A stretch of 64,000 nucleotides of DNA. Source: Felis catus (lineage: Eukaryota). Under the pieces are notes generated by a model, which searched no databases, was not told the origin of the DNA, and saw nothing but the letters and a program-made list of their open reading frames with translations. The position numbers and the translations under genes were made by a program. This document shows positions 17,505 to 50,075 of this stretch, piece by piece. Each line of letters begins with the position of its first letter. Positions within the stretch are counted from its first letter, which is position 1. The DNA lies in the NCBI RefSeq assembly GCF_018350175.1, contig NC_058382.1, positions 49,788,001 through 49,852,000 of the forward strand, read 5' to 3'.

Positions 17505-19668
17505 CCTCACCCACTCATGCTGTCTCTGTGTCTCAAAAATAAACATTAAAAAAAATTAAATAAACTTAAAAAAAAAAAAAAGGACAACAGTTAAATTATA
17601 GACCACTTCAAATATACAAGAGGGAACCCTGACAGGAAACACCCACTATTAGCAATAGTCAGTTCAAGCGTTATCAGCAGAAATGTCATTTTAACTTCAT
17701 TTCACTTCCTCAGAACTTCCTAAAAAGTCTTTATTTAGGCAGAAACTTTCCATGACTGGCCTTTTCCAAAAGGTGAATCATTTGGGAAAGTCTGAGCTAA
17801 CTGGCTCAGCTGGTTATGTGATACAGAAGAATAAAAACTACTATTTTCCTGGGGTGCCTGGGTGGCTGAGTCAGTTAAATGTCCGACTTCCGCTCAGGTC
17901 ATGATCTCGAGACTTGTTGAGTTCGAGCCCCACGTCAAGCTCTGTGCTACAGCTCAGAGCCTGAAGCATGCTTCAGAATGAATCAGTCAATCTCTCTCTG
18001 TCTCTCTCTCTCTCTCTCTCACTCTGTCACTCTCTCTCACTCTGCCTCCCCCACTGGTGCTTTGCCTCTCTCTCAAAAATAAATAAATAAACATTAAAAA
18101 ACAAACAAACAATTTTCCTCATTCCTAAAGGATTACAAGCTACACATTTTTCAAGGGCAAAGAAAACAAAACAAAAAGATAAAAATCCAAAGCTTAATCA
18201 TTAAGACATAATTAAACATAAAAAACTAACTTTGTGCTAACACTACCTTATGCTTATACTTACAAATTCTTACAGTCATCACTAGCTCTTCCTCACATTT
18301 CTTAGATGCAGTAATGCTCTTAACTTGATACAAAGGGAAAAAGAAAAAGCAGAATAATGACATCAAGGGATTAAAAGATATGCTCAAATCCATATGTCAG
18401 GTTTGCATCTGGCTGTCAATTATAATTCAGGCCTCCCAAATTCCTATGTGAGGACTTCTTACAATACCTAAATTTTAAGTATAAATAATCTAAGTTAAAA
18501 AAAAAATCCTGCCAAATGCCAATTATTAACAGGGTTTTATTTTCTTTAGGAGGAAGGAGTTATAGAGAACGTTTGCTTGTCCCATTACTATCTCTGCAAT
18601 ATACATTTTTTAAGTAAAAAATGTACATTACTTCTGCATATGAAATGTATACATGAGAATGTATACATTTGTAGGGGGGAAAAAAGGTGCTTCCCTGAGC
18701 AATTTCTTTGTTTCTTTTTTTTTTAAAGACATCATGCTGCCCTCTTCTGACAAATGATAGAAATAGCAGATTCCCAAATACGTATCCAGTACTTAAAATT
18801 CCCATCCCTTTGCTTTACAAAATGAAATAGGAAATTTGTGTCATTAATATAAATACTAATACATTCACAAAATTTATTTGATCAGAAAATTTAATGATTT
18901 CTCATAACAACAGTTATTTACCAGCTTTTCTTACTCCCTGTGTAGGGCTGATCATAAAGCTGTAAATCTTTCCTGGCTACCCTATATGACACATGGGAAA
19001 TAATACAAGCCAAGAAAGAGTTCTAAAACTTTTTATATATTCCTAATGGTGTATCAAACACTTTCTGCATTATTTTGTACGATTTCCAAACCATTAAAGG
19101 CTTACTGTCAGTGTTCTGCTACCCTCTACTGGAGAACTCTATATATAGTTTCCAGTGTGATTTCTGGCAGCAAAATAACATTACTAATTCACATCATCAA
19201 GAATTATTTAATGGATCCCAAAATGATTGATTATCAGGGAAATGAGTGTCTTTACAATGGAGAATTCTGATAGATATTGCCTAAGTGGTCTAACTTACTG
19301 TTATTGATGTACTAGGAAGAAAAACATCACCTAGCATTTTTGTCTAGGTGACGAATCTGAAGCCTATCATGAGTAAACTATGCAAAATTCCAAACTAAGG
19401 ACCATCCTGCAAAACAGATGGACTCTTAAAAACATACAATTGCTGGGGCGCCTGGGTAGCTCAGTCAGTTAAGCGTCTGGCATCCACTCAGGTCATGATC
19501 TCACAGTTCATGAGTCTGAGCTCTGCGTTGGGCTCTGTGCTGACAGCTCAGAGCGTGGAGCCTGCCTTAGATCCTGTGTTCCCCTCTCCCTCTGCCCTCC
19601 CCGGCTTGCGCTCTGTTTGTCACTCACAAAAATAAACAAACATTAAAAAACAAAAACAAAAAAACATA

Positions 19669-20003
19669 CAATCGACCCTTGAAAAAGCAGCAGTTAGGGG
19701 TGCTGCTACCTGCCCACCACATAGTCCAAAATCCACGTGTAACTTTTGACTGCCCCCAACTTAACCATTAAAAGGCTACTGTTTAACTAGACACCTCACT
19801 GATAACGTAAACAATTAACACACACTTTGCATATGTATTACATACTGTATTCTTACAATAAACTAAGCTAGAGAAAAGAAAATGTTACTAAGAAAATCAT
19901 AAGGAAAATACATTTATGGTACTGTGCTGTATTCAGTGGAAACAAAAATCTACTTACAAATAGACCCATGAAGTTCAAACCTGTGTTGTCCAAGGGTCAA
20001 CTC
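19669..20003. mobile_element. Tigger2-type MITE
   Basis: TA|CAATCGACCCTTGAA ... TTGTCCAAGGGTCAACTC|TA; internal sequence similar to the 15868-16150 copy. Confidence 0.85.
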
Positions 20004-20185
20004 TATATACCAGTGTCACGAAATACTTAAATGAAAGGCTTAAAAAAAGGGCTTAACAAGAAAAGACTAAAAAGACTAAATGCAGAGTGTAATCTTGGAT
20101 TAGATATTGGACTTGAACAAGAAATACAGCTATAAAAGAATTTATCATTGGAAAAACTGGTAAAAAACTTGAGTAGTATTGCATA

Positions 20186-23185
20186 TAGAGCTACTTAAAA
20201 TGTGGGCTACAAAACTAATTGTTATTGGTCCAACAGAAGATGGGTACAGAAAATGTTAAGTATTTGAAAATTTGTTTAGCAATCTGACAATGTCACAATA
20301 TTTAAGACACGACTAGCGGACTCAATGAATACAGAACAATTTGGATACTGTCAAACTCGCAAGGTGGTCACATGTGACATCAGTGTATTAGTCACACACA
20401 GTGCAACGCTATAATGCGTGTGATAGTTTAGGGTTATTTTATCAAAACCCCAAAATGTGATAAAACATAAGCATTTATTTTTATAAATTATTTTTACAAT
20501 CATTCTAATTGTTAACCGAGTGTGACTTTTTAAATTTATAGTTTAAAATTAAATTAAGACGGGGCCCCTGGATGGCTCAGTCAGTTAAGCGTCCAACTTT
20601 GGCTCAGGTCTTGATCTCACAGTTCGTGGGTTCGAGGCCCGCTTCGGGCTCTGTGCTGACAGCTCAGAGCCTGGAGTCTGCTTCAGATTTTTTTGTCTCC
20701 CTCTCTCTCTGCCCCTCCCCCCACTCAGGCTTTCTCTTTCTCTGAAAAATGAATAAACCTTAAAAAAATTTTTTTTAAATAATTAAATTAAGAAAGTAAA
20801 ATCAGTATTATTTTCTTAATCCTAATGTAGTGATGGCAAAACAAGCCTCCCTGGGTATTTCTCTAAAGAAAACAAAGCTTTTCTGAATGCAGCAGTAGTA
20901 AACCACGTGATGATGGAAGCAATTCCAAAGAAACAAGGCCAATCGAAGGTCAAACTGCTTTTATTTTATGAGCACTCATACACGGAGTTTGGTTTTTGAT
21001 CATGTAGTGCTAAAACCATAGTGAGCTCTTTGCAGATGTTTTGGCTAATGAGGCAACGAATTCATCAAAACTTCATTGGTATTTATATACAAATCATAAA
21101 TCCAAAATCAAAAGAATTCTTTGAAAGAAAGAGTACTGACCTAAGAAGCCAATAGAAACAGGTGCCAAATTCCATACATTAACGTTAATTAGTGTATTGT
21201 AGTCCTCCAAGAAAGAAGCACTTTTGGTTAACTAAAGAAGAATGAGCCACCGCCAAGACATCAGTCAGACTTTATGGAAGATGTCTGCTTGGAAAGCTTG
21301 GTGAATCTGTGATAAAGAAGGTGATTCAAGTACAACTTTCCAATAACACCACAGCTTGAAGGCTTCAAGATCTAGCTTATGATAGTGAGAATGATAATAA
21401 AGTTAGCAAAATGTTTTTTCAATGCATTTGAAGAATGCCAGGTTATTATTAACATGAAAATTATGATACATGTGTGATTTTAACATGAGGGTGATGCAAA
21501 GGATTCTTTTATCAGTTTCTGGTTGACAAACATTAACTGACACCAATCTGTATAATAAAACTAAGATTGCACTGTTAACAATGTGATTTGGAATTTAAGT
21601 GTATCGAAGAGTATGTTCTAATGGCACAGCTGCAAGACAGGAGAACAGATTAGATTAAGGAGCTTGTGCTAGAACATAAAATTAACACACTGCTTCCTTC
21701 ACTGAGAAAAATCCTGCCACCAAAACAAACAACTCCACTGTTCTTAGTACAGCAGTAAAAATTGTAAATTATGTAAGGCTAAATGCACTACATTTTTTCA
21801 ATGCCTGTCTTTATATGTGTTAGGCTGAAAGCTGACCGGAAATGTACATATATTATATCGCGTGCTGAGGTACAATGGTTATGAAAGAGAAAAATGCTGT
21901 TGACAAGATGAGCTTCAGAATAAACTTAGTGTCTTTAAAAGAAAAACACCAGTTGGTCTCCAATTTTAAAGATCTCAATCAGACAGTATAACTTGGCTTA
22001 TTTGTCTGACCTTTTGTATTTTTAATAATCTTAGTACTTCCATGCAAGGAAATGATTCAACATGATTTCAGTAGCAAATGGATTATAAATAAAAACGAAA
22101 GCCAGAAGCCTGGAAGAACAGAGTTTCTACAGATTAACATGTCTCACTGAAAGTTCTGAATTCCATTTTCTGTCAAAAGAATAGCCAGACACAGGGAATT
22201 CATGAATGCAGAATTCCTGTTTTCCACTGAAATAGAACTTAAATTTAATTATAACCTGACAGGACAAATTGTTGGAATCGGCTACTGACGAAGCATTAAA
22301 GATAAACTTTGAAAATACAGTATCACTGACTTCATTCTGTATAAAAGTAAAAATAAAAATCTTGAACTTAACTGAAACAGTTTTAAAATCTGTATTTCCA
22401 TCCTCACAAGAGTATCTGTGAGATGGGTTTATAATGAGGATTATTAAGAAAAAGAAAGAAAGACAGGGCGCCTGGGTGGCTCAGTCGGTTAAGCGTCCAA
22501 CGTCGGCTCAGGCCATGATCTCACAGTATGTGGGTTCAAAACTTGCGTCGGGCTCTATGCTGACAGCTCAGAGCCTAGAGTCTGCTTTGGATTCTGTGTC
22601 TCCCTCTCTCTCTGCTCCTACCCCACTCACGCTGTCTCTCTCTCTCTCAAAAATAAACATAAAAAAAAAAAAAAAAACCCACAGAATTTACATATCCATT
22701 ATCCTCCAGTAGTGTGATCATGTATTCATCATAGACACAATAAATTAACAAAGAAATGAGCTATTTTGTCACATTAAAAACTAAAAATTAACATATACAA
22801 GTATGTATTCAAGGTGTGCATCTAGATGTTAAGTATTGAGAACTGATATTTTACTCCTGGCTTTTTGTTTTGTTTTTATTATAGAATAATGTAAACGTAT
22901 AAACAGAACAGTGATTCCCTGTACTAATTATTTATACTCCCACCTTCAATAAACAGCATGCAGAACTATATAAATCTCTTCCTATTCCTATCTGATGTTC
23001 ATTTAGACTATATTTATTGAAACGTATATTTGTATCTGTTGAATCTCGTTGTTAAAAATTTGGGCTTGTATTTTCTATATCTTTTAAATTTATTTTTCTA
23101 ACAATTCCTTTTTATTGTGTTTTATAAGAGTATTGGTCTGCAGCAAGTTGAAAATTGTAAATCAGCATCCTTCACCACAGATTTA
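20186..23185 (+). mobile_element. Decayed near-full-length hAT/Charlie (Charlie4-like) transposon in CFDP1 intron 4
   Basis: Left end TAGAGCTACTTAAAATGTGG resembles a Charlie TIR. Broken-frame transposase remnants: VLANEA..SKL (~21040), SNNT.A.R.QDLA (~21340), CS.G.AA (~21615), THCFLH.E (~21686), AEV.WL (~21865), LAYLSD (~21993). Interrupted by two SINEs. Confidence 0.75.
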
Positions 23186-23865
23186 GATAATAATGTGCAT
23201 TAATGTGAAATTTAGTGGATGTAACAGTTATGTTATACCATGAAGAAGAATGCCTGCGTTCTTAGGAAACTGTGCAGACATATTTAAGAGTGAAGCATCA
23301 TGATGACTACAAGCAATTCTCAAATGGTTCAGCCAAAACAAAAAGACAATAATACAGATCTAGATGATGGAGACAGAGGCCACACATTAACAAGTGGCGA
23401 ATGTGTATAATAGGTATATGGGTACTCATTGTAATACTAATTATTGTAGCATAATGCTGTGTGAAATCTTTCAGAAGAAGTTGGGGAAAAATATTTTTAA
23501 AAAAATAAAAAGTTCTGCTCCACACAATTTATAAAACTAATAATGCCAATTTTTTTTTTCCAATATGAATTTTGGGGAGAAAATGGGAGAAATGACTCTT
23601 GCGAGAAATGACTCAGCCAAAGTCACAAGGCATGGCAATAAGTGGAACCAAATACTTTTTTTTTTTTCTCTCAGACACTTCACAATACCTACAACTACAT
23701 CATGTTCCCTGATAATTCATGGAACCACCACTCTCCTGGAGTGGAAAACAAAACTCTTCCAAAATATTATGATGATAGAGTAGAATGAGGCCAGATGTCT
23801 AACACCATTCAAAAGATGCTCATTTTTAAACAAACTAGTTTCAAAGTCTGTAACGGTCACCTTAC

Positions 23866-31300: not shown

Positions 31301-33901
31301 AAGATCAAATCCCATGCAGTTACTATGACAAAAAAGAAAAAAAGGGTAAGAAGCAAATAACATCCTTGTAGATAATAAAGAACAAAATGAATACATCTTG
31401 TCCAAAGACAGAGCTTCCCATCACCTTTTCAGTCCCCCATGCTTAAATCTGAGCCGAACAACTATGAATCACTGAAAATCTTCTAGTAAAGCCAAAAGCA
31501 AACATATAGGGTGAATAAAAATCACCTTAGAGAAATGTTTCGTCACATTCTGAGGCTAGCAATACCTGCTACTAAAACAAGACAAGGAAATTACAAGAAA
31601 ACTACAGACCAACATCCCTCATAAACAAATGCGAAAATTCTCAACAAATACAAGCAAATAAAATTCAGCAATGTATAAAAAGAATTGTCCATGATGACCA
31701 AGTGAGTTTTATCCCAGAAATAAAAGGCTGTTCAAAATTCAAAAATCAATCACTAACTCACCATATTAGGAGAAAGAAAAATCACACATAATCTTTTCAA
31801 CAGAGGAAAAGCATATGACAAAATTCACTTCTCAGCAAATTAGGAGTAAGGGCAACTTCTTTAACCTGATAAAATGCATCTGTAAGGAGCAGTATATGCA
31901 GACTGCCAGGGTTCAAATCTTACCTCATCTACTCTGTAGCTGAACAACTTTGGGCAATTTGCTTAATTCTCTGTGCTTCAACTCCTTCGTCTGTAAAACG
32001 TGGAGAACAGCACATATTCATCAGTGTTATGTGATTGAGCTAGTAATGAGTTAGTCCCCGTAAAGTGCTTAAAGCACACACACAAGGCATGTGTAATGCA
32101 TAGCTAACATACTAGTGAAACACTGATAATTTCCTCTTAAAATGGGAACAAGGACGTTCACTCTCACCGCTCCTACTCAACATCACACTTGAAGTCTTAT
32201 CAAGAGCAGAAAGGCAAGCAAAAGAAACAAAAGGCATACCAATTGTAAAAGAAAAACTAAAATGGCTTCTATATACAGACATCATGATCTCTCTTTTTTA
32301 ATTTATTTATTTTGAGAGAGTGAGAACACAAGCACACACGTGAGTGGGTGAAGAGGCAGAAAGAAAAACAGAGGAAGAATCCCAAGCAGGCTCCATGCTG
32401 TCAGTGCAGAGCCCAACATGGGGCTAGATCCCATGAACTGTGAAATCATGACCTGAGAAGAAATCAAGAGGCGGATGCTTAACCAACTGAGCTTACCTAG
32501 GTGTCCCTCATAATCTCTTTTATTTGGAGAGGAAAGGGTGAGGGTGGCCTTGGAACTGTTAATTCTGGTGATGGTCACACAACTCTAAGCATTTCTCAAA
32601 ACTGATAGAACAGTACATTGAAAAGAGTAAATTTTACTGTATGTAAGTTAAACATTAAAAATTTTAAATTAGTTTTAATATCCACAGAGCACTAAGATTC
32701 AGCACTATGAAACGAGAACATGCTATAAAAAAGGACTATTCGAGGAACAACAAAGTTATTCAAATGTAAAAATATGAAAGGAAAAAATACAGGAGTTGAA
32801 GATACTGATAATTTCCCATGAAGTGGAAAAAAGTCAAGGGTTAGAAAATAGTCAAGGGGGGGGGCGCCTGGGTGGCTCAGTCGGTTGAGTGGCCGACTTT
32901 GGCTCAGGTCATGATCTAGCAGTCTGTGAGTTTGAGCCCCGCATCAGGCTCTGTGCTGACAGCTCAGAAGTTAGTAAAGCAATAAAGCAGCTCCTTTAAC
33001 ATTCTAATTGAAAGCTATCATTATAAATCCTAGAATTATTATTACAAAACAGAATTCTATACCAAACAAGCACTAATTAGGCCTTAGGGTAACATCATTA
33101 TTTTTAGAAATACTGTTTTCACACCTTGAATGTCTACTATGCATCATCCGTGCTCAAGTAGTTGAGCATTTATTCTCATTTCGGTGGAACATGCTAAGGA
33201 AAAAAAGACAACACAGGACCCAAGAAGCGGAATCCAACAGAAAAGGGAGATAGATGAATGGAACACCCAGAGGGGTGATGGTGACAAAGATACTAGGTTT
33301 AAAAGTGGTAAAACCAAGGCAAGGCGGAAGTCAGAAGGCAAAGACAGGACTTCAAGATGAAAGTAAAAGATTATTTAATGAATCGAATTACCTTGGGAGA
33401 TGATTTTTATACAATTCTGAGAATTTAGGGTCAAATTAATAGTAAGGACATAGACACCTAAGCAACAACAAAATGGCAATTATTAACTCCACAGAAAGCA
33501 AGTAGTGTAGGAAAAGCAATCTCGGGATCTATCACCTGGTTCAGAGCTGAACTTGGGGTTGTTCACAGTCAGTACAAAAATGTAAACATGGAATACTGAT
33601 CTAACCAAAATTAGACATGGTGACAAGGGCAGGCTGGGGAGTTGGGGAGGGCCTGATGGTGGAAGGGTGTGTGTTGGGAATGAGGGGGAAGAAGAGGGTA
33701 TTAAAATAAGACCTACCGTGCCTGGGTGAAGCCCACACACAATGAAAATACCAAATTAAAAACTGGAAAGCAGTTTCTTCCACGGGGGAATGAAGCAGGA
33801 TGAAGGGTGATGGGAACCATTAGTTTTCAAGACAGGCCTTTTAGAAATATTTGACTATGTTTATGTGGATGCACAACTTTCATTAAAACGAAAACTAGCT
33901 T

Positions 33902-34122
33902 GGGGCGCCTGGGTGGCGCAGTCGGTTAAGCGTCCGACTTCAGCCATGTCACGATCTCGCGGTCCGTGAGTTCGAGCCCCGCGTCGGGCTCTGGGCTGAT
34001 GGCTCAGAGCCTGGAGCCTGTTTCCGATTCTGTGTCTCCCTCTCTCTCTGCCCCTCCCCCGTTCATGCTCTGTCTCTCTCTGTCCCCAAAATAATAAACG
34101 TTGAAAAAAAAATTAAAAAAAA
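33902..34122 (+). mobile_element. Young felid SINEC_Fc in CFDP1 intron 1
   Basis: CpG-intact GGGGCGCCTGGGTGGCGCAGTCGGTTAAGCGTCCGAC head, (CT)n, polyA. Perfect 17-bp TSD AAAACGAAAACTAGCTT (33885-33901 and 34123-34139). Confidence 0.95.
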
Positions 34123-34599
34123 AAAACGAAAACTAGCTTTCAGATAACCACTCTGGCCATCACAAGACCAATGTTGGTGGACAAGAATGGAAATGGTATC
34201 GGGCAAACCAGTTGGGAAGCTATGCCTTAATCCTAGCGAAGAACGGCAGTTTGGTAGCAGCGAGTGAGATTGGCGAGGAAGCGGTCAGAAAACGATTTTC
34301 CACGTAGACACAACAGCACTTATTGACTGCTTGAACCAGGAGAGAAAGTAAGGATGGATGAGTCCTAAGGGTTTTTTGTTTGATGGGAGCGACTGTGTGG
34401 GTAGATCCTTTCAATGAGATGGGGCAGTCTGAGGGAAGGCGCAGGATGGGGAAGGGGTAGGTTCGAATGACCCCTTTAAGTTTGACAAACCTACGCCAAA
34501 AAGAGGAAGGCGGGGGGGGGGGGGGGGAGGAGCTGAAAAGAGAGTAACAGGTATACGTCGCAAAAGGACAAAATGCATCATACGTGAACTTTCTAATAA

Positions 34600-35400
34600 C
34601 TAGATCCCATGCGAGGGCAGAGAGTAGACAGATTTATCTTGGCCGTGGTGCCGGCTGGCAAGCCCCTCGGGACGAAAGGTCTGACGACAACATCCTACGC
34701 TCACACTGCCTTTCACGGGAGTTCAGTACTAGCGCGGTGCGGGTACCGATAGCCACCGCCAGCGTCCCCAGATCGGGGTGGTGCTCACGTGCCGGTTCCC
34801 GCGCTCCGGGAAGGGGCGGAGGCTCGAGCCAGGCCGCGGGCAGTGGCAGTGCGAGACGCCCGCGTGCACGCGTCTCGGCCCCGCACCACCGCGCGGAGAA
34901 AGCACGCGGGCGAGGATGCGGGGCTCGCGCGGTGGGGACGCTCGAGACCGGCGCCACCGGGGGCCCCGGGCCACGCACGCCGGACCAAACACGCCTCACG
35001 TGAAGCGCGGGGCGGGGCAAGCCTCCTCTCGCCTGCGGCCCAAACGCTCACCCGACGGCACGTAGTCTTCGTCCTCCTCTGAGGTGGAGAAGTCTTCAGA
35101 ATCGAATTCCTCCATGTTGCTGCTGCACCGGGCGGACGAAGCCACAGGACCGCAGCAACTGCCCCCAACGGCAAATCTCTAGGGAGAGACCATAGAGCTG
35201 CGGTGGGGGAGCCGGCGGCTGGGGCGGCCCCCACAACGTGTGCGCGTGCGCAAAAAGGGCTACGTATTCCAAACGCGACACTTCCGGGCCAATGCCTAGC
35301 GCCTGGCGCTGCTGTGGTGGTTGACGGAGCACAGGCTCCGCGTGGAAGCGGTGCCTGATGGAACTTGTAGTCTCCAGCACTGTCTGGACGCTTCGATTTA
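34600..35400. promoter_or_regulatory. CpG island / CFDP1 promoter with bidirectional-promoter motifs
   Basis: Dense CpG. NRF1-like TGCGCGTGCGCA at 35241-35252, ETS/GABPA CACTTCCGG at 35279-35287, CCAAT at 35289-35293, and ZNF143/SBS-like ACTACAAGTTCCATCAGGCACCGC on the minus strand at 35348-35371. Confidence 0.85.
35052..35115 (-). CDS. CFDP1: CFDP1 (craniofacial development protein 1 / BCNT) coding exon 1
   Basis: Minus strand ATG GAG GAA TTC GAT TCT GAA GAC... = MEEFDSEDFSTSEEDEDYVPS(G), the recognisable CFDP1 N-terminus. 64 nt followed by a GTGAG donor, inside a CpG island. Confidence 0.97.
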
Positions 35401-35733
35401 ATAAATGTGCTTAAACAAAATTATATGTCTGTGGTATTACAGTTGACGTTCGTTATTTACAGCTTGGTATTTTCGAATCGCTTACTTGCTTAAACTTACT
35501 GTAACCCCAAAATCAATATTCGCGGTGCTTTCTGGGGTTATTCGCGGACATGCGCAGAGGATGAAAAGCTGGAGTCAACCAGCGGTGCGGGGTACTAGCA
35601 GAGGTTGAACAAGGCAGACAATGGGCTTTCTTGCCTCATCTCTCATGCTGTAAATAATTGTCCTATTTGCAGTCTATTTGGTGCCACGTTTTTTGCGTTT
35701 CCGTGCTTTTTGTTGGTGATTTTGCTGTTAAAA

Positions 35734-37515
35734 ATGACCCCCAAGCGTAGTGGTGAAGTGGTGCCTAGTGCTCCTAAGCGCAAGAAGGCTGTCATGTGCC
35801 TTATGGAGAAAATACGTGTGCTAGATAAGCTTCGTTCAGGCATGAGTTGTAGTGCTGTTGGCCGTGAGTTCAATGTTAATGAATCAACAATCCGGTACAT
35901 CAAGAAAAAGGAAAAGGAAATTCGCCGATCTGTACGTGAGGCTGCTCCGGAAAGTGCTAAAGTAACGTCTATAGTGCGTGAGGAAGCTATGGAAAAGATG
36001 GAAAAGCGGCTAAATTTGTGGATTCATGAGATGACAACCGATAAAAAAGGCGTGGTGGACAGCATTGTCGTGAGGCTGAAAGCCAAAGAAATTTACGGTC
36101 ATGTAACCCAAGGCCAGAAAAACGTTAAACCTTTCTCCGCCAGCGCTGGCTGGCTTGCACGTTTCAAAAGGCGATATGGTGTGAACAATGTTAAACTTGC
36201 AGGTGAGGCAAGTTCTGCAGATCGGGAGGCTGCAGAAGAATTTAAAAAACATTTGCTGAGTGTTATACAGGACAAAGGATACGTGGAAGAGCAGGTTTTC
36301 AACGCTGATGAGACTGGCTTATTTTACAAGGACGTTGGCAAAAGAACCTATATAACACAAATGGCCTGCAAAGCCCCTGGCTTTAAATCATTCCAAGACT
36401 ATGCAACCTTGCTGTTGTGCACTAATGCCAAGGGCGACTTCAAGTGCAAACCTCTAATGGTATACAGAGCCCAGAATCCACAAGCACTTAAAGGGAAAAG
36501 CGTCAACCATATGCCTGTCCATTGGAGATGGAACAAAAAAGCGTGGATGACATCCAGCTGGTTCCACAACTGCTTCGTACCGGAAGTTGAATGCTATCTC
36601 CAGGGCAGAAACCTTGCCTTCAAGGTTTTATTAATTTTGGATAACGCCCCAGTCCATTGCTGTGAAGAACTCAAAAATGCCCACCCCAACGTAGAAGTTC
36701 TTTTCATGCCCCCAAACACTACCTCTCTCATCCAACCCCTGGATCAGGGTATAATAAAAGCTTTCAAGGCACACTATACCAGGGAGCTTTATAGCAAAGG
36801 TTTCCAGGCTCTCGAATCCAACAAGGAAACTACCATGATGGACTATTGGAAGTCCGTTACCATACGTAACGTTATTGATTATGTTGGGACAGCCTGGGGC
36901 AGCATCAAACAAGCTACTATCAATAGCTGTTGGAAAAATGTTTGGCCAGACTGTGTGCAAAATTTCGAAGGCTTTGAAGGTGTTGCAGAAAGCATAAAGA
37001 AGAGTGTCGAAAACATAATGCATATCGCACGGCAAATAAGTGGAGAAGGCTTTGACGACATGAAGGAGGAAGATGTGGAGGAAATTTTGGCAGAGAAGGC
37101 AGTAGAACCCACCAACGAAGACCTGGACGAGATGGCAAAACAAGGCATTGGGGTCGGCAGTGATGAGGACGGCGATGAGAGTCAGCCTAAGACTTCAATA
37201 ATTGACCCTCTTACAGCGACCAAAATATCAGAATGGAATTCTGCCTTGGAAAGAATTTTCAATGACATGATAGAGTGTGACCCTATGCTTGATCGCAGCC
37301 TCAAATTTAAGCGCCTCACCTCCACAGCATTTGCCCCTTATGCCGAGATGCTTAAAGATTTGAGGCAAAAAGCTAAGCAGACAAGGCTGACCCAACTTTT
37401 CGAGCCAGTTTGGGAGGAAAAATCGCCGACTCCGTCAACAAGTCACGAGAGGCAAACTCCTGAGGTTGAACTGCCAAATGTTGACATGCTTCCCTCTTCC
37501 TCTTCTGCAGAATAA
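35734..37515 (+). CDS. Intact pogo/Tigger (CENP-B/TIGD-like) transposase ORF, 593 aa, intronless
   Basis: First in-frame ATG at 35734 (AAAATGA); the ORF track's 35605 start is a TTG. Contains HTH_psq-like EKIRVLDKLRSGMSCSAVGREFNVNESTIRYIKK, CENP-B HTH ...FSASAGWLARFKRRY, and DDE_1 motifs VFNADETGLFYK, LLILDNAPVH and PPNTTSLIQPLDQGIIKAFK. No stops or frameshifts over 1782 nt. Confidence 0.93.
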   Translation: MTPKRSGEVVPSAPKRKKAVMCLMEKIRVLDKLRSGMSCSAVGREFNVNESTIRYIKKKEKEIRRSVREAAPESAKVTSIVREEAMEKMEKRLNLWIHEMTTDKKGVVDSIVVRLKAKEIYGHVTQGQKNVKPFSASAGWLARFKRRYGVNNVKLAGEASSADREAAEEFKKHLLSVIQDKGYVEEQVFNADETGLFYKDVGKRTYITQMACKAPGFKSFQDYATLLLCTNAKGDFKCKPLMVYRAQNPQALKGKSVNHMPVHWRWNKKAWMTSSWFHNCFVPEVECYLQGRNLAFKVLLILDNAPVHCCEELKNAHPNVEVLFMPPNTTSLIQPLDQGIIKAFKAHYTRELYSKGFQALESNKETTMMDYWKSVTIRNVIDYVGTAWGSIKQATINSCWKNVWPDCVQNFEGFEGVAESIKKSVENIMHIARQISGEGFDDMKEEDVEEILAEKAVEPTNEDLDEMAKQGIGVGSDEDGDESQPKTSIIDPLTATKISEWNSALERIFNDMIECDPMLDRSLKFKRLTSTAFAPYAEMLKDLRQKAKQTRLTQLFEPVWEEKSPTPSTSHERQTPEVELPNVDMLPSSSSAE

Positions 37516-37906
37516 ACTCCACCTACCTCCCCCGTGGTTATCGTGGGGCAAACCAAGGTCAAGAGGTTTAACCACACTGTGTGCTGTAGCATCACACATC
37601 CTGCAGTTCCATCAACAGTAAGATTTTAGTTAATGTTTTAATGAAATCTCTAACGTTTTCCACACTCTATTTGCATTACTGTGAAATATACAGTATGTGT
37701 TGACGTACTCTGTGTTTATGTGAATATTGTATGTTATACTGTGTGTTTGCTACATGTACTACATATGATTACTGCATGTGTGTGTCTGACTGAGGAAAAA
37801 AGTAATACAATCTCAGTATTGTAGAGAACGTTACACAAAAATGCTGTAATTGAAACCGTGTTTTATTATATAAAAATACTGCACATAATTATTGTGAGAA
37901 AGATGT

Positions 37907-37912
37907 ATTAAA
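37907..37912 (+). terminator. Candidate polyadenylation signal (ATTAAA) for the Tigger ORF
   Basis: ATTAAA about 390 nt after the stop codon, inside the element's 3' arm, preceded by TGTA. Inference only. Confidence 0.3.
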
Positions 37913-40370
37913 TAAGGTGTTCTTGAACAGAAACACACATGAAACAAGATTATGTACTGATCAGTTGACAAAAAAGATTGTGACCGGAGACTAACAGGAA
38001 CCCAACCCTGTACTGCTAACTGAATGTGCACGATGACTTTATAACCATAACTACTGTGAACGAGAATCAACTGAATCCTAGAATTCAGACAACACCCACG
38101 TGCATCCTTCAAGTTAATCCACATGGAAGTACGGCCACCTATGGTCTCTATCATTTTATCAGATTAAAAATATTTCTTAATTAGACTCCAATTATGGGAA
38201 GCAGTAATCAGAAACAGATACACAGGAGACAGCAACAATTAACATCCTTTTGTTCAGGTTTAGGGTTTTTCTCAGCTGAAAATTGCTCTTCATTGTTACT
38301 CTATACTAGTCTGGGTTTGAGTCACCCAGTCCTAGCGTTAATCTAAGAAATAGATGAACACACCTGTGATTAAAAGGACATTATGGTGAATGGGTGACAG
38401 GCATTAAGGAGGGCACTTTTCAGGATGAGCTCTGGGTGTCATATCTAAGAGATGAATCACTCACTGGGTTCTACTCCTGAAGCCAAGACCACACTGTATG
38501 TTAACTAGCTTGAAAATAAAAATAAATGTTAAAAAGGGGCACTGTGGTGGCACTATAGCAGCAAACTTTTAAAAACAGCCTAATTGGGGACACCTGGGTG
38601 CCTCAGTCAGTTAAGTGTCCAACTTCAGCTCAGGTCATGATCTCGTGGTTCATGGGTTCCAGCCCTGCATCGGGCTCTGTGCTGACATCTCAGAGCCTAG
38701 CCTGCTTCAGATTCTGTGTTTCCCCCTCTCCCTGCCCCTCCCACACTTGTGCGCTCTCTCTCTCTCTCTCTCACTCGCTCTCAAAAATAAAATAAAACAT
38801 TACAAATAAATAAATAAAAACAGTTAATTGAAACATAATTCACAGACCATAAAATGTACCCATCTAAAGTACACAGTTCAGGGGTGCCTGGCTGGCTCAG
38901 TTGGTAGAGCATGTGACTCTTGATCTTGGGGTTGTGAGGTCAAGCCCCATGTTGGGTGTAGAGATTGCCTAAATAAATAAACTTTAAAGTGCACAACTCA
39001 ATAGTTCTGGTAAATTCAGACTTGTGCAGCCATCACATAAAAAAATGAGCCTCTGACCCATTTCTCCCCAATCCCCAGCCTCAGGCTAATCTGTCTCTAT
39101 AAACTTGCCTATTCTGGACTTTTCATGTAAATGGTATTATACAACATGTGGCCTTTTGTAACTGTCTCCTTTCACTTAACACATCTTCAGAGGTAATTTC
39201 TCTTTGGGATGTACCTGTGGAATTGCTTGATCATATAGAAATCATATGCTTTACCTTTCGGGGAACCGCCAGATTGCTTCCCAAAGCAGCTGTGCCATTT
39301 TATAACCTCAACAACAATGCCTGAAGGTTCCAGTTTCTGCACACCTTGCCAAACCCCTTGTCTTTTTTATTAAAGCCATCCTAGTGGGTGTGAGTGGCAT
39401 TTCATTGTAGTTTTTATTTGTACTTCCCTGATGACTGATATTAAACATCTTTTTATGTCTTTATTGGCCATGATATATGTTCTTCAGAGAATGTCTATTC
39501 AGATCTTTTGCCCATTTTGAAACCAGGTCATTTGTCTTTTTACTTACTTTTTTAACATTTATTTATTGTTGACAGAGAGAGACAGAGCACGAGCAGGGGA
39601 GGGGAGGGGCAGACAGAGGGAGACACAGAATCCGAAGCAGGCTCCCGGCTCCGAGCCGTCAGCACAGAGCCAGACGCGGGGCTCGAACCCACGAACCACG
39701 AGATCATGACCTGAGCCGAAGTCGGACACTTAGCCCACTGAGCCACCCAGGTGCCCCATCATTTGTCTTTTTATTATTGAGTTTTAAGAGTTCTTTATAT
39801 ATTCTAAATAGCCGTCTCTTATAAACCATAGGACTTGAATAATTCCTTCTATTCTGTGGCGTGTCTTTCTACACCCTTGATGGCATCCTTTGAAGCATAA
39901 CATTTTTAAATTTTGACCAAGTCCAATTTATTTTTCTCTGGTCCCTTGTGCTTTTGGGGTTCTATCTAAGAAGGCTTTGCCTAACTCAAGATCACAAAAC
40001 ATACTCTCGTTTTCTTCTGAGCTTTATAGTTTTAGTTCTTACATTCGGGTCTGTGCTTCAGGTAGATCGTCCTTATGGGAGGATAAGAGAAAAGTAGATG
40101 TGAAATTAGGACTCAGTATTTGGGAGTTTACCATGCCAGCCTCTTTCCTTGGACACTGTAAATGGACCCTGCAGTGACAAACTGGGATGTAGCTTTTTGC
40201 CCCCGGGGAAAAGGATGCGTTAGAATTCTCCAACACACTCTCCCCCAGCATCATCTCATTTCTCCCAGTCTCTTTGCAGCTCACTGTCACTCCATGCATT
40301 TGTTCAAATTCAGTTTCCAGCCACTTTAAGGATAATCAGGGTAGGAGCTAGTTTCCATTATTCCAAATAG

Positions 40371-45534: not shown

Positions 45535-45665
45535 CTATAGAGTAGCTAAAACCCGTAAAAAGGAGACCACTACTACACAGAATGTCTGTCCGGTGCCCAA
45601 GGTGAGGGCTTCAAATGGTATCATCTCCTTTCCTGCTGCTCGGTACACTCCAGCAATTGCAGCAC
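45535..45665 (-). CDS. TMEM170A: TMEM170A coding exon 3 (to stop codon)
   Basis: 131 nt, CAG acceptor; (S)AAIAGVYRAAGKEMIPFEALTLGTGQTFCVVVVSFLRVLATL-TAG. The three exons sum to 435 nt = 144 aa + stop. Confidence 0.97.
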
Positions 45666-47738
45666 CTGTTTAAAAATTCAAGAGTGTTAAAAAAAAAAAA
45701 AATCAAGGTTAATATAATCAGGAAAATACACTACTTAAAATCCTACCCTAAGTAGAATATTCCAGATTTTTTTACATTAAAATTTAAATATCATAGAAAT
45801 GTCTTATTCTCCCTATACTTTTCTCTAGATTTTAAGTATTCTCCATACGACTTATAAATTACTGATTAGTGCTTTCAGACGTTGAAAAGTGAGTCCTTAA
45901 AATGGAGTCTCCCGGATTTACTGAATAAAATAATCTGGAAATCATAACCCAAATCACAAATTTCCACATGACCTGATTACAAACTCATCACAAAAACATC
46001 TCTTATTTGCCATGCTTAGCATTTAACAGGTACCTAATAAAATTTTGGTAATGAATGCCAATGAAACTTTCCAGGGAAACCGAGCAAGAAATATTTCAGA
46101 AAAAGCCAGAGATGCCCGCTCTGCCTTCTACTGTACTCAGCTCCCCTCCCCAAGTGGACGGAGGAGGAGCAGAGGGAAAAGGAAAGGGTGACTCTACGTT
46201 TATGAAGTTGTTACTAATTCAAAGGGCATGAGGCCAGAGGTGCTAAGGGGGTCCTTTCTGTTCCCCACATCATTAATCGTCTTTATTACGTTAAGTCACC
46301 ACAACTTTCTAGAAACGGAGTAAACCAAACACAAACATCTGTACCTCCCTAGAAACCCAGATGAATTGTTACAGGGACTCAGCATTGTATTGAGAGAGCC
46401 AAGATTTCATTAGTTTGACAATAATAGATCCAAAGTTCCCAGATGACCCTCCTCTCAAAGACCATTCCAAACAGAATCCTCCTTGGTCAGTGTGTTCATT
46501 CCTGCAAACAGGTATTTGCCTGTATGTTTTCTAAGATCCCTATTCTCATGATACTCAGATCAAGCTGGAACAGAGAAAGCACAGCATGAAACAGATTTTG
46601 AATAATACAAGACAACATACAGCATCTCAATCAAATGCCTACACATTTTACACATGTGATATGAAAACATATTAACAAATTCGAAGAAGAAGAAAGAGCA
46701 AATTAACCAGTATCTGTATTGGTTGCCTGGAACATCTGTGACTTTCAAATGCCCACCTCCAGTGCCTATGCATACAGTGCCTATGTTATTAACATCTGCA
46801 AGGCACCTGCTGCATCAGGCCCCTTCATAATTTAGCTCCAAAACAAGTGGGTTGGGTAGAAAGAAGTGTAAGAAACTTGAAGTAGGCCCTAAGGTGGGGC
46901 CTAGATGATGAAGAAGGGAAGAACGGAAAAAAGCACACCAGGAGGAGCAGTAAAATGGGAAGGAAATGGACTCTCTTCAGCAGAGTCTTAAAGAGAGAAT
47001 GGACACATTTATTGCACGATTCCTAAGTGTTAGGTATTATGTTAAGTACTTTAAATAAACATTATTTCCTTTTATCATCACACAGCATCTGAGGAGGGTA
47101 GAATTATCCTTATTTTACTGATGAGAAATCTGAGACAGCTCCTAGGAGCCGGTAATCCAATAAGGAAACTGGAACAGAGGGTCTCTAAAGAGCAGCAGCA
47201 GGTGATACAGTTAAAAATACTATATAAAGCCAGTTATGGAAACACCTTAACGCAGACAAGAGAAAACTGGCCTCCTCCTCCTGTTATCACAAAGGTTTCA
47301 CCACCTACAGAACACAAAGAAATGAGGCCACTTTGTCCTCAAAAAGAAAAAAAACCTCAAGTCAAAGAAAAGGCAGAGGGGCAGTTCCATTTAGAGCTCA
47401 AGGCTTAAATGCACACACTCACACAAAAATTACAAATTAGCAGGAATGTTGTGTTTCTATCTTTTCAGCATGTATTTATGTTTACATGTGCACCTGGAAA
47501 AAAGTCTGAAAGCATATACCAAAATGCAAACTGAGGTTTTCACTTAGGGATGTGATAATGGAGTGTTTTTAGTTTTGGTTTCTGGAGCTTTTAATTTATA
47601 TAAAATATATTTATATTTAATCATGAGCTTAAAAATGACCTAAACTGATTCTCATCCTTATGATATCAGCAAAAGCCAAAAACAAGTAAAAACAATTTAT
47701 AATTTATTCCAGTTCTTTAAAAAAATTTTTTTAACATT

Positions 47739-47775
<37 letters not shown>

Positions 47776-48869
47776 CAGAGCATGAGCGGGGGAGGGGCAG
47801 AGAGAGCGGGAGACACAAAATCCGAAGCAGGTTCCAGGGTCTGAGCTGTCAGCACAGAGCCTGATGAGGCGCTCGAACCCACGAACTGTGTGATCATGAC
47901 TTGAGCTGAAGCCAAGCTCAACCGACTGAGCCACCCAGGTGCCTGTGTTATTCCAATTTATTTTTAAATGTTTATTTATTTTTTGAGAGAGAGAGACAGA
48001 GACAGAGTGCAAGCGGGGGAGGGGCAGAGACCGAGGGAAACAGAATCTGAAGCAGGTTCCAGGCTCTGAGCTGTCAGCACAGAGCCCGACATGGGGCTCG
48101 AACCCACAAGCCATGAGATCATGACCCGAGCTGAAGTCCGACGCTCAACTGACTGAGCCACCCAGGCGCCCCTCCAATTCTTATTCAGAAAGTTTTGACG
48201 GGAAAAAAATAACCAGAAGACAAATCAGGTACCATTCATTAAAAAAAAATTTTTTTGAAAGAGTACGAGTGGGGGAGGGGCAGAGAGGGGAGGTTACAGA
48301 GGATCTGAAGCAGGCTCTGCAATGACAGCAGCAAACCATGTGTGGGGCTCGAACTCGCAAACCATGAAATCATGACCTGAGCTGAAGTCGGATGCTCAAC
48401 CGACTGAGCCACCCAGATGCCTCACATCAGGTACTTTTCTGAACTAGAATTATTCTTCCATCCTCAAAAAATTATTATTCATCCTGAGTGAGGAGAAGGG
48501 CCTCGTCAACAATCTTTCGATGCCATCGGTCAACTGATAGCTGACAAGAAAGGAGCAGTAGCTTCCAAAAAAATAAACACCTTTTACTAGATTTCAAAAT
48601 GTAGTTTTACTACATCTCAAAAGCCTCACATGGCTTATCTGAAGCCAGTGAGAGAAAATACAACTTCGGAAGTCAAAGATGTTAGCCAAATCATAGGAGG
48701 GGGAGGCGGGGGTTACAGATAAGAGAAAAACAGTACGCTAAAGAAAGCGCCCATGGTTAAAAGCCACCCTTTTTTCTTCATTTCACACAGACATGTTTCT
48801 AAAATGGGTCCTGAAATTAAGTGACTAGTCATAGGAAACGTATGACTGGTATTTTAATGTCTAACATAC

Positions 48870-49040
48870 TTGTCAAGATTCCAGCAGTAATTGGTCCCAC
48901 GATGCCCATCAACAGGATGCTTACAGACATGAACCTACCATATTTGTGATGTCTGAGGGTGAAGAGGGCCAGTAATCCAGCAGGGACATGGAAGAAGAGA
49001 GAGGACACCAGTGCCCACAGGAACACACCATACCACATCT
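48870..49040 (-). CDS. TMEM170A: TMEM170A coding exon 2
   Basis: 171 nt, TAG acceptor and GTATGT donor. MWYGVFLWALVSSLFFHVPAGLLALFTLRHHKYGRFMSVSILLMGIVGPITAGILT (hydrophobic TM segments). Confidence 0.97.
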
Positions 49041-50075
49041 CTACAAGGAAAAGCAAAGAAAGGTCACAAGTCACAGACTTTCCCAGTACAGGAATTACCA
49101 AGGGCTCGTCATCATACCCGCTTATTTCATTTTCAAAGCCATCCAGGTGCCAGGTAGGTTCAGCAGTCAAATATCTAAATATTGATGGTTCTAGAGGGAT
49201 TAGCAAACCACGGCCTTCAGGCCACCACCTGGTTTTGTGCATACACTCTCACTGAACGCAGCCATGCCCATTCATTTAAATCTTGTCTAGGCCTGCTTTC
49301 AGACTACAAGAGCAGAGCTGAAACAGTGACAAAGAGCACGTGGCCTGCAGAGTCTGACATATTTACTATCTGGCCATTTCCAGAAGAACTTGGTCAACCC
49401 CTAAAATGATCAATCATTTTAGACTTCTACGATGGAAAAGCTGTACAGTTTTATTCATTCAACAGTCGTTTCCTTTTTTTAAATTTTTTTAAGTTAAAAA
49501 TTTTTTTTATCTTGAGAGAGAGCGACAGAGAGACAGAGAGAGAATGCCAAGTAGGCGTTGCACTGTTAGCTCAGAGCCTGATGTGGGGCTTGAGCTCATG
49601 AGCCATGAGATCATAGCCTGAGCCAAAATCAAGAGCTGAATGCTCAACTGACCAAGCCACCCAGGTACTCCACAACAATCATTTTCTACTCAGCCATCAA
49701 AAAAAAAAAAAAAAAAAAAGAAATCTCACCATTTGCAATGACGTGGATGGAACTAGGGTACATTATGCTAAGTGAGGTAAGTTAGAGCAAGACAAATACC
49801 ATATGATTTCACCCAGGTGGAATTTAAGAAACAAAACAAAGGAACACAGGGTAATGGAAGGAAAAATTAAATAAGATAAAAACAGAAGGGGCGGCAAACC
49901 ATAAGAGACTCGTAACTATTCTTAACTATAAAGAACAGAGTTGCTGAAGGGAAGGTGGGTGGGGCACAGGCTACACGGGTAATGGACATTAAGGAGGACA
50001 CTTGTGATGAGCACTGGGTGTTACATGTAAGTGATCAATGTTTTTAATATAGGTTACCACGGATAAAGGTCCTAA

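Follow-up and report, generated by a model that had tools for sequence, protein, structure and literature searches.

A 64,000-nucleotide stretch of the cat genome (Felis catus), which we call the window (C39:49788001-49852000; the genome has 2.43 Gb in 71 contigs), contains a 2634-bp pogo/Tigger element with degenerate inverted ends (window 35440-38073, plus strand). We think it quite likely that this element is now a domesticated transposase gene, and neither a dead nor a live transposon. An earlier note on this DNA had proposed a host gene whose protein is under purifying selection. Our analysis agrees: the family has just one other intact copy in the cat genome, the tree of the related proteins is congruent with the species tree, the proteins of one clade share a deletion, and the rates of change at the three codon positions differ as expected for a selected protein.

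The reading frame and its domains

The earlier note also described an unbroken frame of 1782 nucleotides with the complete architecture of a pogo transposase, and this is what we find: the open reading frame (ORF) has no internal stop, and the protein matches three Pfam families (Table 2). There are two helix-turn-helix domains of the CENP-B type at the N terminus and a DDE_1 domain with a D-D-D triad, as is usual in the pogo/Tigger group. The triad is D192 (36307-36309), D303 (36640-36642), and D337 (36742-36744). D192 lies just upstream of the Pfam match to DDE_1, and 33 residues separate D303 from D337, so the spacing is DD33D. The sole sequence match of the protein in the PDB is the DNA-binding domain of CENP-B (1hlv_A, E 9.2e-5). 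The order of CENP-B_N, HTH_Tnp_Tc5, and DDE_1 is shared with CENP-B, TIGD2-7, JRK, JRKL, POGK, and POGZ. Compared with the CENP-B group, the window gene keeps the triad in most lineages, and nothing points to a role at centromeres.

Orthologues in other mammals

Our survey of orthologues covered the 120 best database matches and the listed members of 10 clusters. The best matches are RefSeq and UniRef proteins from many species named "tigger transposable element-derived protein 1" or "1-like." RefSeq gives the first of these names to proteins of horse, bear, lynx, and whale, among others. Proteins of 590-593 amino acids occur in at least nine felids (591-593 in all nine of the listed proteins), in a seal, sea lions, the walrus, equids, and many cetaceans. 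The brown bear form has 609 amino acids, and forms of 553-575 amino acids occur in rhinos, the hippo, some dolphins, the otter, and the colugo. Identity to the window protein is 98.5-99.7% for felids, 88.2-92.6% for caniforms, 88.4-90.2% for perissodactyls, 89.2-90.1% for cetaceans, and 85.5% for the colugo.

A maximum-likelihood protein tree of 49 rows (6 rows of fewer than 400 amino acids were left out) contains two sister clades, each supported at 100/99 by the ultrafast bootstrap and the Shimodaira-Hasegawa-like approximate likelihood ratio test (SH-aLRT). The clade of the window protein has 29 rows, which group as colugo with marmot, hippo with cetaceans, equids with rhinos, Caniformia, and Felidae, in agreement with the accepted phylogeny of the species. 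All 29 of these rows also have a deletion of four amino acids near residue 275, as do 4 short rows from pig and camelids. The deletion is not present in any of the 15 rows of the other, paralogous clade (clade B), in the armadillo protein, or in the outgroups. Vertical descent from one insertion before the split between Laurasiatheria and Euarchontoglires would give such a combination of a congruent tree and a shared deletion.

The armadillo protein (P0009, 640 amino acids, 80.9% identical) has all three catalytic aspartates but no firm position at the base of the two clades; joining it to the window clade is not rejected (approximately unbiased test, p 0.17). It is either an orthologue from before the deletion, in which case the insertion would have been present in the placental ancestor, or a third independent capture. 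When we scanned metagenome contigs for orthologous mammalian DNA, we found 14 loci, all of them distant relatives at 26-43% identity.

To see which parts of the protein are conserved, we counted invariant columns in nine representatives of the clade, from cat to colugo. Conservation is highest in CENP-B_N, with 49 of 52 columns invariant. The corresponding counts are 55 of 67 for HTH_Tnp_Tc5, 131 of 177 for DDE_1, and 15 of 33 for the C-terminal tail. The D-D-D triad is complete in 23 of the 29 rows, including those of cats, bears, true seals, horses, rhinos, and whales, and is replaced in six. D337 has become H in two sea lions, the walrus, and the colugo and N in the marmot; D192 has become N in the hippo and S in the marmot; and D303 has become A in the fur seal. 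All six of these rows retain long open frames. Because several lineages have lost the triad yet keep the ORF, catalysis is probably not the function that has been selected.

Selection and neutral decay

The closest relative of the window gene within the cat genome is another open copy, on C1, which we call the paralogue. Over 588 codons of these two genes, the ratio of nonsynonymous to synonymous rates (dN/dS) is 0.27 (NG86), 0.32 (LWL85), 0.42 (YN00), or 0.37 (maximum likelihood). We also analyzed pairwise distances with 28 decayed copies of the family over codons 1-210, assuming a star tree and without building a consensus. The branch from a decayed copy to the ancestor is 0.21, 0.17, and 0.19 at codon positions 1, 2, and 3. 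These rates are nearly equal, as neutral decay predicts. In the same analysis, the branch of the window gene is 0.070 at positions 1+2 and 0.110 at position 3.

Each of the 28 decayed copies has 1-9 stops in the frame of the ORF, which is a density of 0.0237 stops per codon. At this density, 14.1 stops would be expected in 593 codons. The window ORF has none, and the probability of this outcome is about 8e-7.

A three-way comparison with L023, a decayed copy of nearly full length, extends the analysis to the whole ORF (Table 1). Here the branch of the window gene is 31% of the neutral value at positions 1+2 and 77% at position 3. Some of the reduction at position 3 is located in the first part of the ORF, which lies in a CpG island. 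Outside the island (codons 211-593), the values for the window gene and for L023 at position 3 are 0.144 and 0.149, so the mutation rate there is normal. Outside the CpG island, then, the amino-acid-changing positions of the window gene have been filtered by selection. In short, the frame is more intact than neutral decay would leave it, and dN/dS within the genome is below 1.

Table 1. Branch lengths in the comparison of the window gene, its paralogue, and a decayed copy
Region	Codon positions	Window gene	Paralogue	Decayed copy L023
Whole ORF	1+2	0.059	0.063	0.191
Whole ORF	3	0.126	0.169	0.164
Codons 211-593 (outside the CpG island)	1+2	0.066	0.066	0.169
Codons 211-593 (outside the CpG island)	3	0.144	0.169	0.149

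Copies of the element in the cat genome

We scored 74 of 3323 first-look candidates from a protein search of the genome and 40 of 1295 candidates from a DNA search. Among the 74, only the window gene and the frame at C1:80601013-80602779 (the paralogue; 78%, open) reach 78% amino acid identity. The window protein is at most 37% identical to the remaining full-length open frames of the pogo type, and this sets it apart from them. Among the 40, the paralogue is 82% identical to the element at the nucleotide level, and all of the others are 70-80% identical except for a 107-bp end piece at 86%. The sole other copy of nearly full length is L023 (71%), in which the frame of the ORF is interrupted by 12 stops and lacks 102 bases. 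The earlier note had named many near-identical copies as a sign of recent activity. Given that the closest other intact copy is only 82% identical, we see no recent activity.

Several of these copies help to define the element. Its left end reads ta followed by CAGTTGACGTTCGTTATTTACAG. Its right end, as the reverse complement, reads CAGTTGATTCTCGTTCACAG, and the next letters are aa instead of ta. So the terminal inverted repeats and flanking TA of the pogo/Tigger group are present in degenerate form, with TA before the left end and AA after the right end, and the ends and length are exactly as the earlier note had given them. In three of the five family copies whose 5' ends could be aligned, homology reaches the same CAG.. 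terminus, so 35440 is a genuine end of the family. Deletion derivatives in the genome fuse element positions ~10-967 with ~2403-2579, and to judge from their sequences, most of the copies at 70-80% identity are internally deleted, non-autonomous derivatives. MER82, to which the earlier note had likened the element, is listed under Mariner/Tc1 in a passage of PMC5753468.

The paralogue is a complete element of 2585 bp (C1:80600454-80603038, minus strand) with its own termini and with TA on both sides. Its ORF encodes 592 amino acids, is open, and has the same domains, and the protein is 100% identical to a UniRef entry from Felis catus. A CpG island lies about 1.2 kb upstream of the element (C1:80604250-80605250, GC 0.72-0.78). 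Exons matching betaPIX_CC are found 100 kb beyond this island (C1:80705430-80706978) and on the opposite strand, so the paralogue is head-to-head with an ARHGEF7-type gene. A 273-residue ORF within the island matches no Pfam family. At third positions, the branches of the window gene and the paralogue sum to 0.252, as compared to a pairwise distance of 0.259, which leaves no common branch. Therefore, the paralogue is a separate transposition and not a duplicate of the window gene.

The paralogue belongs to clade B, whose 15 rows (including dog, raccoon dog, bears, seals, horses, a whale, and a colugo) also follow the species tree. The two genes are from the same Tigger family, have the same domains, and are each divergent from the CpG island of a host gene. 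They differ in their insertion and in their neighbor, and unlike the window gene, clade B lacks the 4-residue deletion and has lost the third catalytic D, with S or N in its place in all 15 rows.

Predicted structure

An AlphaFold2 model of the protein, made from an alignment of 96 rows, has a mean predicted local distance difference test (pLDDT) score of 77.7. The predicted fold matches Mos1 (5hoo_A, E 8.8e-4), the transposase domain of SETMAR/Metnase, and CENP-B(1-129), including 1hlv_A; matches to 3k9j_B and 3f2k_A have a template modelling (TM) score of 0.52 when normalized to the target. The predicted catalytic core thus resembles those of a mariner transposase (Mos1) and of its domesticated human derivative (SETMAR). 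Unlike these proteins, which are 12-14% identical to it, the window protein belongs to another branch of the superfamily and has no fusion to a SET domain.

Near the C terminus, residues 495-548 are modelled as a confident helical hairpin (helices 495-515 and 519-548, with pLDDT of 80-95 across the block). A homodimer model of residues 488-558, made without an alignment, scores 0.76, while the best of three controls scores 0.01. The runs concur in at least 93% of contacts, and the pLDDT of the partner is at least 86. In calibration with microbial proteins, the mark that we use for dimers was passed by 21 of the 30 solved one-chain pairs and by none of the 23 single chains. With eukaryotic proteins, 17 of 29 passed, and this fell to 1 of 7 if there was no older solved relative. 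In the predicted interface, 22 of 27 residues are invariant, as compared to 25 of the 44 remaining residues of the segment. The predicted helical dimer resembles the layout of CENP-B, in which binding is N-terminal and dimerization is C-terminal.

The locus

The earlier note had placed the element between CFDP1 and TMEM170A. This fits what we see, with CFDP1 exons and TMEM170 exons on the minus strand on either side: an exon with the BCNT domain of CFDP1 lies 75 kb upstream, and TMEM170 exons lie at window 45538-45675 and 48865-49047. A distance of 325 bp separates the CFDP1 ATG from the start of the element, which lies upstream and faces the other way, so that its ORF is head-to-head with CFDP1 exon 1. 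Between 34500 and 36250, the ratio of observed to expected CpG stays at 0.83-1.13 in all 250-bp bins, versus 0.38 for the window as a whole, and this single CpG island takes in exon 1 of CFDP1, the element's left arm, and about 500 bp at the start of the ORF. Coordinates are collected in Table 2.

Table 2. Features of the element and of the adjacent promoter (window coordinates)
Feature	Position	Strand	Details
Whole Tigger-type element, immobilized	35440..38073	+	Ends read directly; family copies in the genome match positions 10-967 and 2403-2579
Left terminal inverted repeat, with TA before it	35440..35462	+	CAGTTGA..TTC terminus shared with the paralogue and with copies L059 and L024
Right terminal inverted repeat, degenerate; next letters AA, not TA	38054..38073	-	Read from the sequence
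Intact single-exon ORF (593 amino acids, protein P0001)	35734..37515	+	1782 nucleotides including the stop; no internal stop
CENP-B_N helix-turn-helix DNA-binding domain (residues 15-66)	35776..35931	+	Pfam, E 5.2e-9
HTH_Tnp_Tc5, second DNA-binding domain (residues 87-153)	35992..36192	+	Pfam, E 8.4e-13
DDE_1 catalytic domain (residues 224-400)	36403..36933	+	Pfam, E 6e-43
C-terminal helical hairpin (residues 488-558), predicted homodimerization domain	37195..37407	+	AlphaFold2 and homodimer model
CFDP1 exon 1, coding part	35052..35115	-	ATG at 35115, GTGAGC donor; boundary inferred from the donor motif
CpG island common to CFDP1 and the element, presumed bidirectional promoter	34500..36250	.	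CpG observed/expected

For transcription, we sampled 231 words from window 35600-37900 and looked for them in sequencing runs. Small contig sets of 88-1018 million letters, drawn from 8 studies, make up 14 of the 24 listed runs, and each of these contains 73-94% of the sampled words; 2 are recorded as RNA and 12 are guessed to be. Six genome-sized sets contain 99% of the words. The word content of the contig sets is only suggestive of transcription of the ORF.

A few other features of the region deserve mention. At the 3' end of the ORF, an AATAAA hexamer (37511-37516) overlaps the TAA stop codon (37513-37515). Use of this hexamer as the poly(A) signal would give a very short 3' untranslated region and leave the element's right arm untranscribed. 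The sequence GGAACTTGTAGT, which is ACTACAAGTTCC on the minus strand, occurs at 35360-35371, in the interval from the CFDP1 start to the element's left end; we take the latter to resemble the ACTACA box of ZNF143-type promoter sites. A run of ~17-19 G occurs at 34511-34530, in CFDP1 intron 1 and just within the CpG island. Copies of a tRNA-like short interspersed element (SINE) with A-rich tails are found at 33890-34130, 19399-19650, 20542-20760, and 22440-22720, and one of these is within CFDP1 intron 1, near the promoter. Translations of these copies repeat "GAWVAQSVKRP..." in several frames, and they are presumably carnivore SINEs. The earlier note had also described a Charlie remnant at 20-23 kb as riddled with stops, and indeed, the longest stop-to-stop frame in 19.5-23.5 kb has 117 codons. 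A short frame at 22260-22421, within this so-called Charlie region (19500-23500), looks to us like a remnant of a hAT C terminus.

How the gene may have arisen and what it may do

We propose that one copy of an old Tigger family inserted upstream of CFDP1, ~325 bp from its start codon and facing away from it, before the boreoeutherian radiation ~90 million years ago. A date of this order would fit a neutral branch of 0.19 substitutions per site if mammals change at ~2e-9 per site per year. The element would then have lost its mobility, and its coding sequence would have been inherited vertically under purifying selection. It would be transcribed divergently from the CpG-island promoter of CFDP1, in the arrangement that has been described for TIGD1 and EIF4E2.

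The product would act in the nucleus and, through its two N-terminal helix-turn-helix domains, bind DNA at a specific sequence. The likeliest target would be the site that it once recognized at the termini of its family, which has left hundreds or more relics in the genome. If the C-terminal hairpin dimerizes the protein, as in CENP-B, then it could be a site-specific factor that binds or bridges DNA.

Weighing the explanations

Several of our results count against a domesticated gene, or at least limit how far the proposal can be taken. Among the 120 best matches and the listed members of the 10 clusters, there is no protein from a primate, ruminant, bat, or murid. The marmot protein has just 491 amino acids and a long branch (0.15), and the pig and camelid proteins are cut to 313-339 and 316-392 amino acids. 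With such patchy retention, the gene is dispensable in many lineages. Orthology is argued from the protein tree, from the indel that the clade has in common, and from contigs of similar size. Selection was assessed within the cat genome, from the window gene, the paralogue, and decayed copies of the family, and the constraint is moderate: the ratio of positions 1+2 to position 3 on the window branch is ~0.47, and pairwise dN/dS is 0.27-0.42. Of the 14 contig sets that we treat as RNA, 12 are guessed to be RNA. The DNA target that we consider most likely is predicted only. The dimer score may be the model's memory of the solved dimerization domain of CENP-B. Finally, in the passage that concerns them, Gao et al. 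(2020, PMC7386202) describe "TIGD1-like sequences" as multi-copy, narrowly distributed, and akin to pseudogenes, and they exclude them with data not shown. That verdict is contrary to ours.

With these points in mind, one might suppose that the gene, although domesticated in the past, is now a transcribed by-product of the bidirectional promoter of CFDP1 under relaxed constraint, is drifting toward loss, and has no present function in cats. The patchy retention and the truncated pig and camelid forms would fit, as would the long branches of marmot, otter (0.083), and hippo (0.058), the changed catalytic residues in 6 of 29 rows, and the moderate constraint overall. But felid proteins differ at just 0.3-1.5% of residues, with all nine of the listed ones at 591-593 amino acids, and the DNA-binding domain is almost invariant between orders. 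We consider this explanation unlikely.

It is about as improbable, in our judgment, that the protein is still a dimeric and catalytically competent nuclease or recombinase that recognizes its family's relic ends, of which there are hundreds or more, and cuts them. The triad, which is intact in 23 of 29 rows, is the reason to consider it; the lineages that keep the ORF without the triad speak for a function other than catalysis. If the enzyme were active, then non-primate mammals would have a working transposase-derived enzyme that primates and mice have lost.

It is much less likely still that the window gene is simply the orthologue of TIGD1, as the NCBI label suggests, even though RefSeq uses this name in horse, bear, lynx, whales, and others. 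According to the cited passages of Kalitsis and Saffery (2009, PMC2777200), PCR and sequence show that TIGD1 inserted between CHRNG and EIF4E2, and it was present in all of the primates tested and not in tree shrew or bat. In a passage of Dupeyron et al. (2020, PMC7325037), the catalytic spacing of TIGD1 is DD32D. In contrast, the window gene is beside CFDP1 rather than EIF4E2, has the spacing DD33D, and is found in carnivores, perissodactyls, cetaceans, the hippo, the colugo, and the marmot, and no primate protein is among its 120 best matches. There is no IF4E match in or near the window, and the sole one on the same contig is ~45 Mb away. Across the 10 kb upstream of one IF4E match, which may or may not be EIF4E2, the window protein, a poor probe for a different Tigger family, matches only 25 residues, with E 0.065. 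Also, the "TIGD1-like" label is attached to lizard, fish, and insect proteins that are ~40% identical. Because the locus, the host range, and the spacing all differ, the window gene is very probably not TIGD1, and its RefSeq name would reflect similarity only. The earlier note is supported on both counts: it held that this was not a named TIGD gene, and it expected an automated TIGD1-like label.

TIGD1 is nevertheless a close parallel. As described in PMC2777200, it too is a Tigger-derived, intronless ORF that has kept D-D-D, has been immobilized, and is antisense at the CpG-island promoter of a host gene. It too forms a head-to-head pair with its neighbor, and it shares the CpG island of EIF4E2, which reaches into the captured element and was lengthened after the insertion.

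Another idea is that the frame has stayed open without any selection on the protein, in an unmethylated CpG island that mutates slowly and has not yet been hit. The cited text of PMC2777200 does argue that CpG-island capture sites help to preserve the integrity of a sequence. Also, the CpG ratio is 0.83-1.13 across the first 500 bp of the ORF, and over codons 1-210, the third-position branch of the window gene (0.091-0.110) is below the 0.19 of the decayed copies. However, ~1.3 kb of the ORF is outside the island, and there, position 3 is neutral while positions 1+2 are at 39% of neutral. A third-position rate that is normal outside the island implies that a slow island alone did not keep the frame open. 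In addition, 14 stops were expected and none were found, and the frame is independently open in dozens of species. We see almost no chance that this idea is correct.

Hardly any more credible is an active, recently active, or horizontally acquired transposon: the architecture is complete, the triad is present, and both termini are recognizable, but there are no near-identical copies among the 40 scored candidates, the termini are degenerate with the right TA lost, the short-branched tree tracks the species tree, and the 4-residue deletion is within the catalytic core.

Significance

We return to the domesticated gene, which is our preferred explanation. Catalogues of host genes derived from transposases center on human and mouse. 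No primate or murid proteins were returned by our survey, and thus, the window gene exists just as an automated "TIGD1(-like)" model, which is how it has been known so far, and under a misleading name. We found no paper in the literature that describes this locus, although the supplementary TIGD trees of PMC7386202 and PMC7325037 might show the clade. The sole paper to mention such sequences, PMC7386202, set them aside as pseudogene-like. Yet the gene appears to be ~90 million years old and to be conserved in at least four placental orders.

The window gene is a further case of a known kind, a domesticated pogo transposase, and it arose by a known route, capture at a bidirectional CpG-island promoter. 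Its main interest is that it is an overlooked gene that has apparently been lost from primates and murids and that it is one of three parallel captures. Separate Tigger copies were captured at the divergent CpG-island promoters of CFDP1, of an ARHGEF7-type gene, and, in the case of primate TIGD1, of EIF4E2. These three captures are concrete support for a "promoter hijack" route to domestication. And because some lineages keep the triad while others have lost it, the gene is a natural experiment on what selection preserves in a domesticated transposase.

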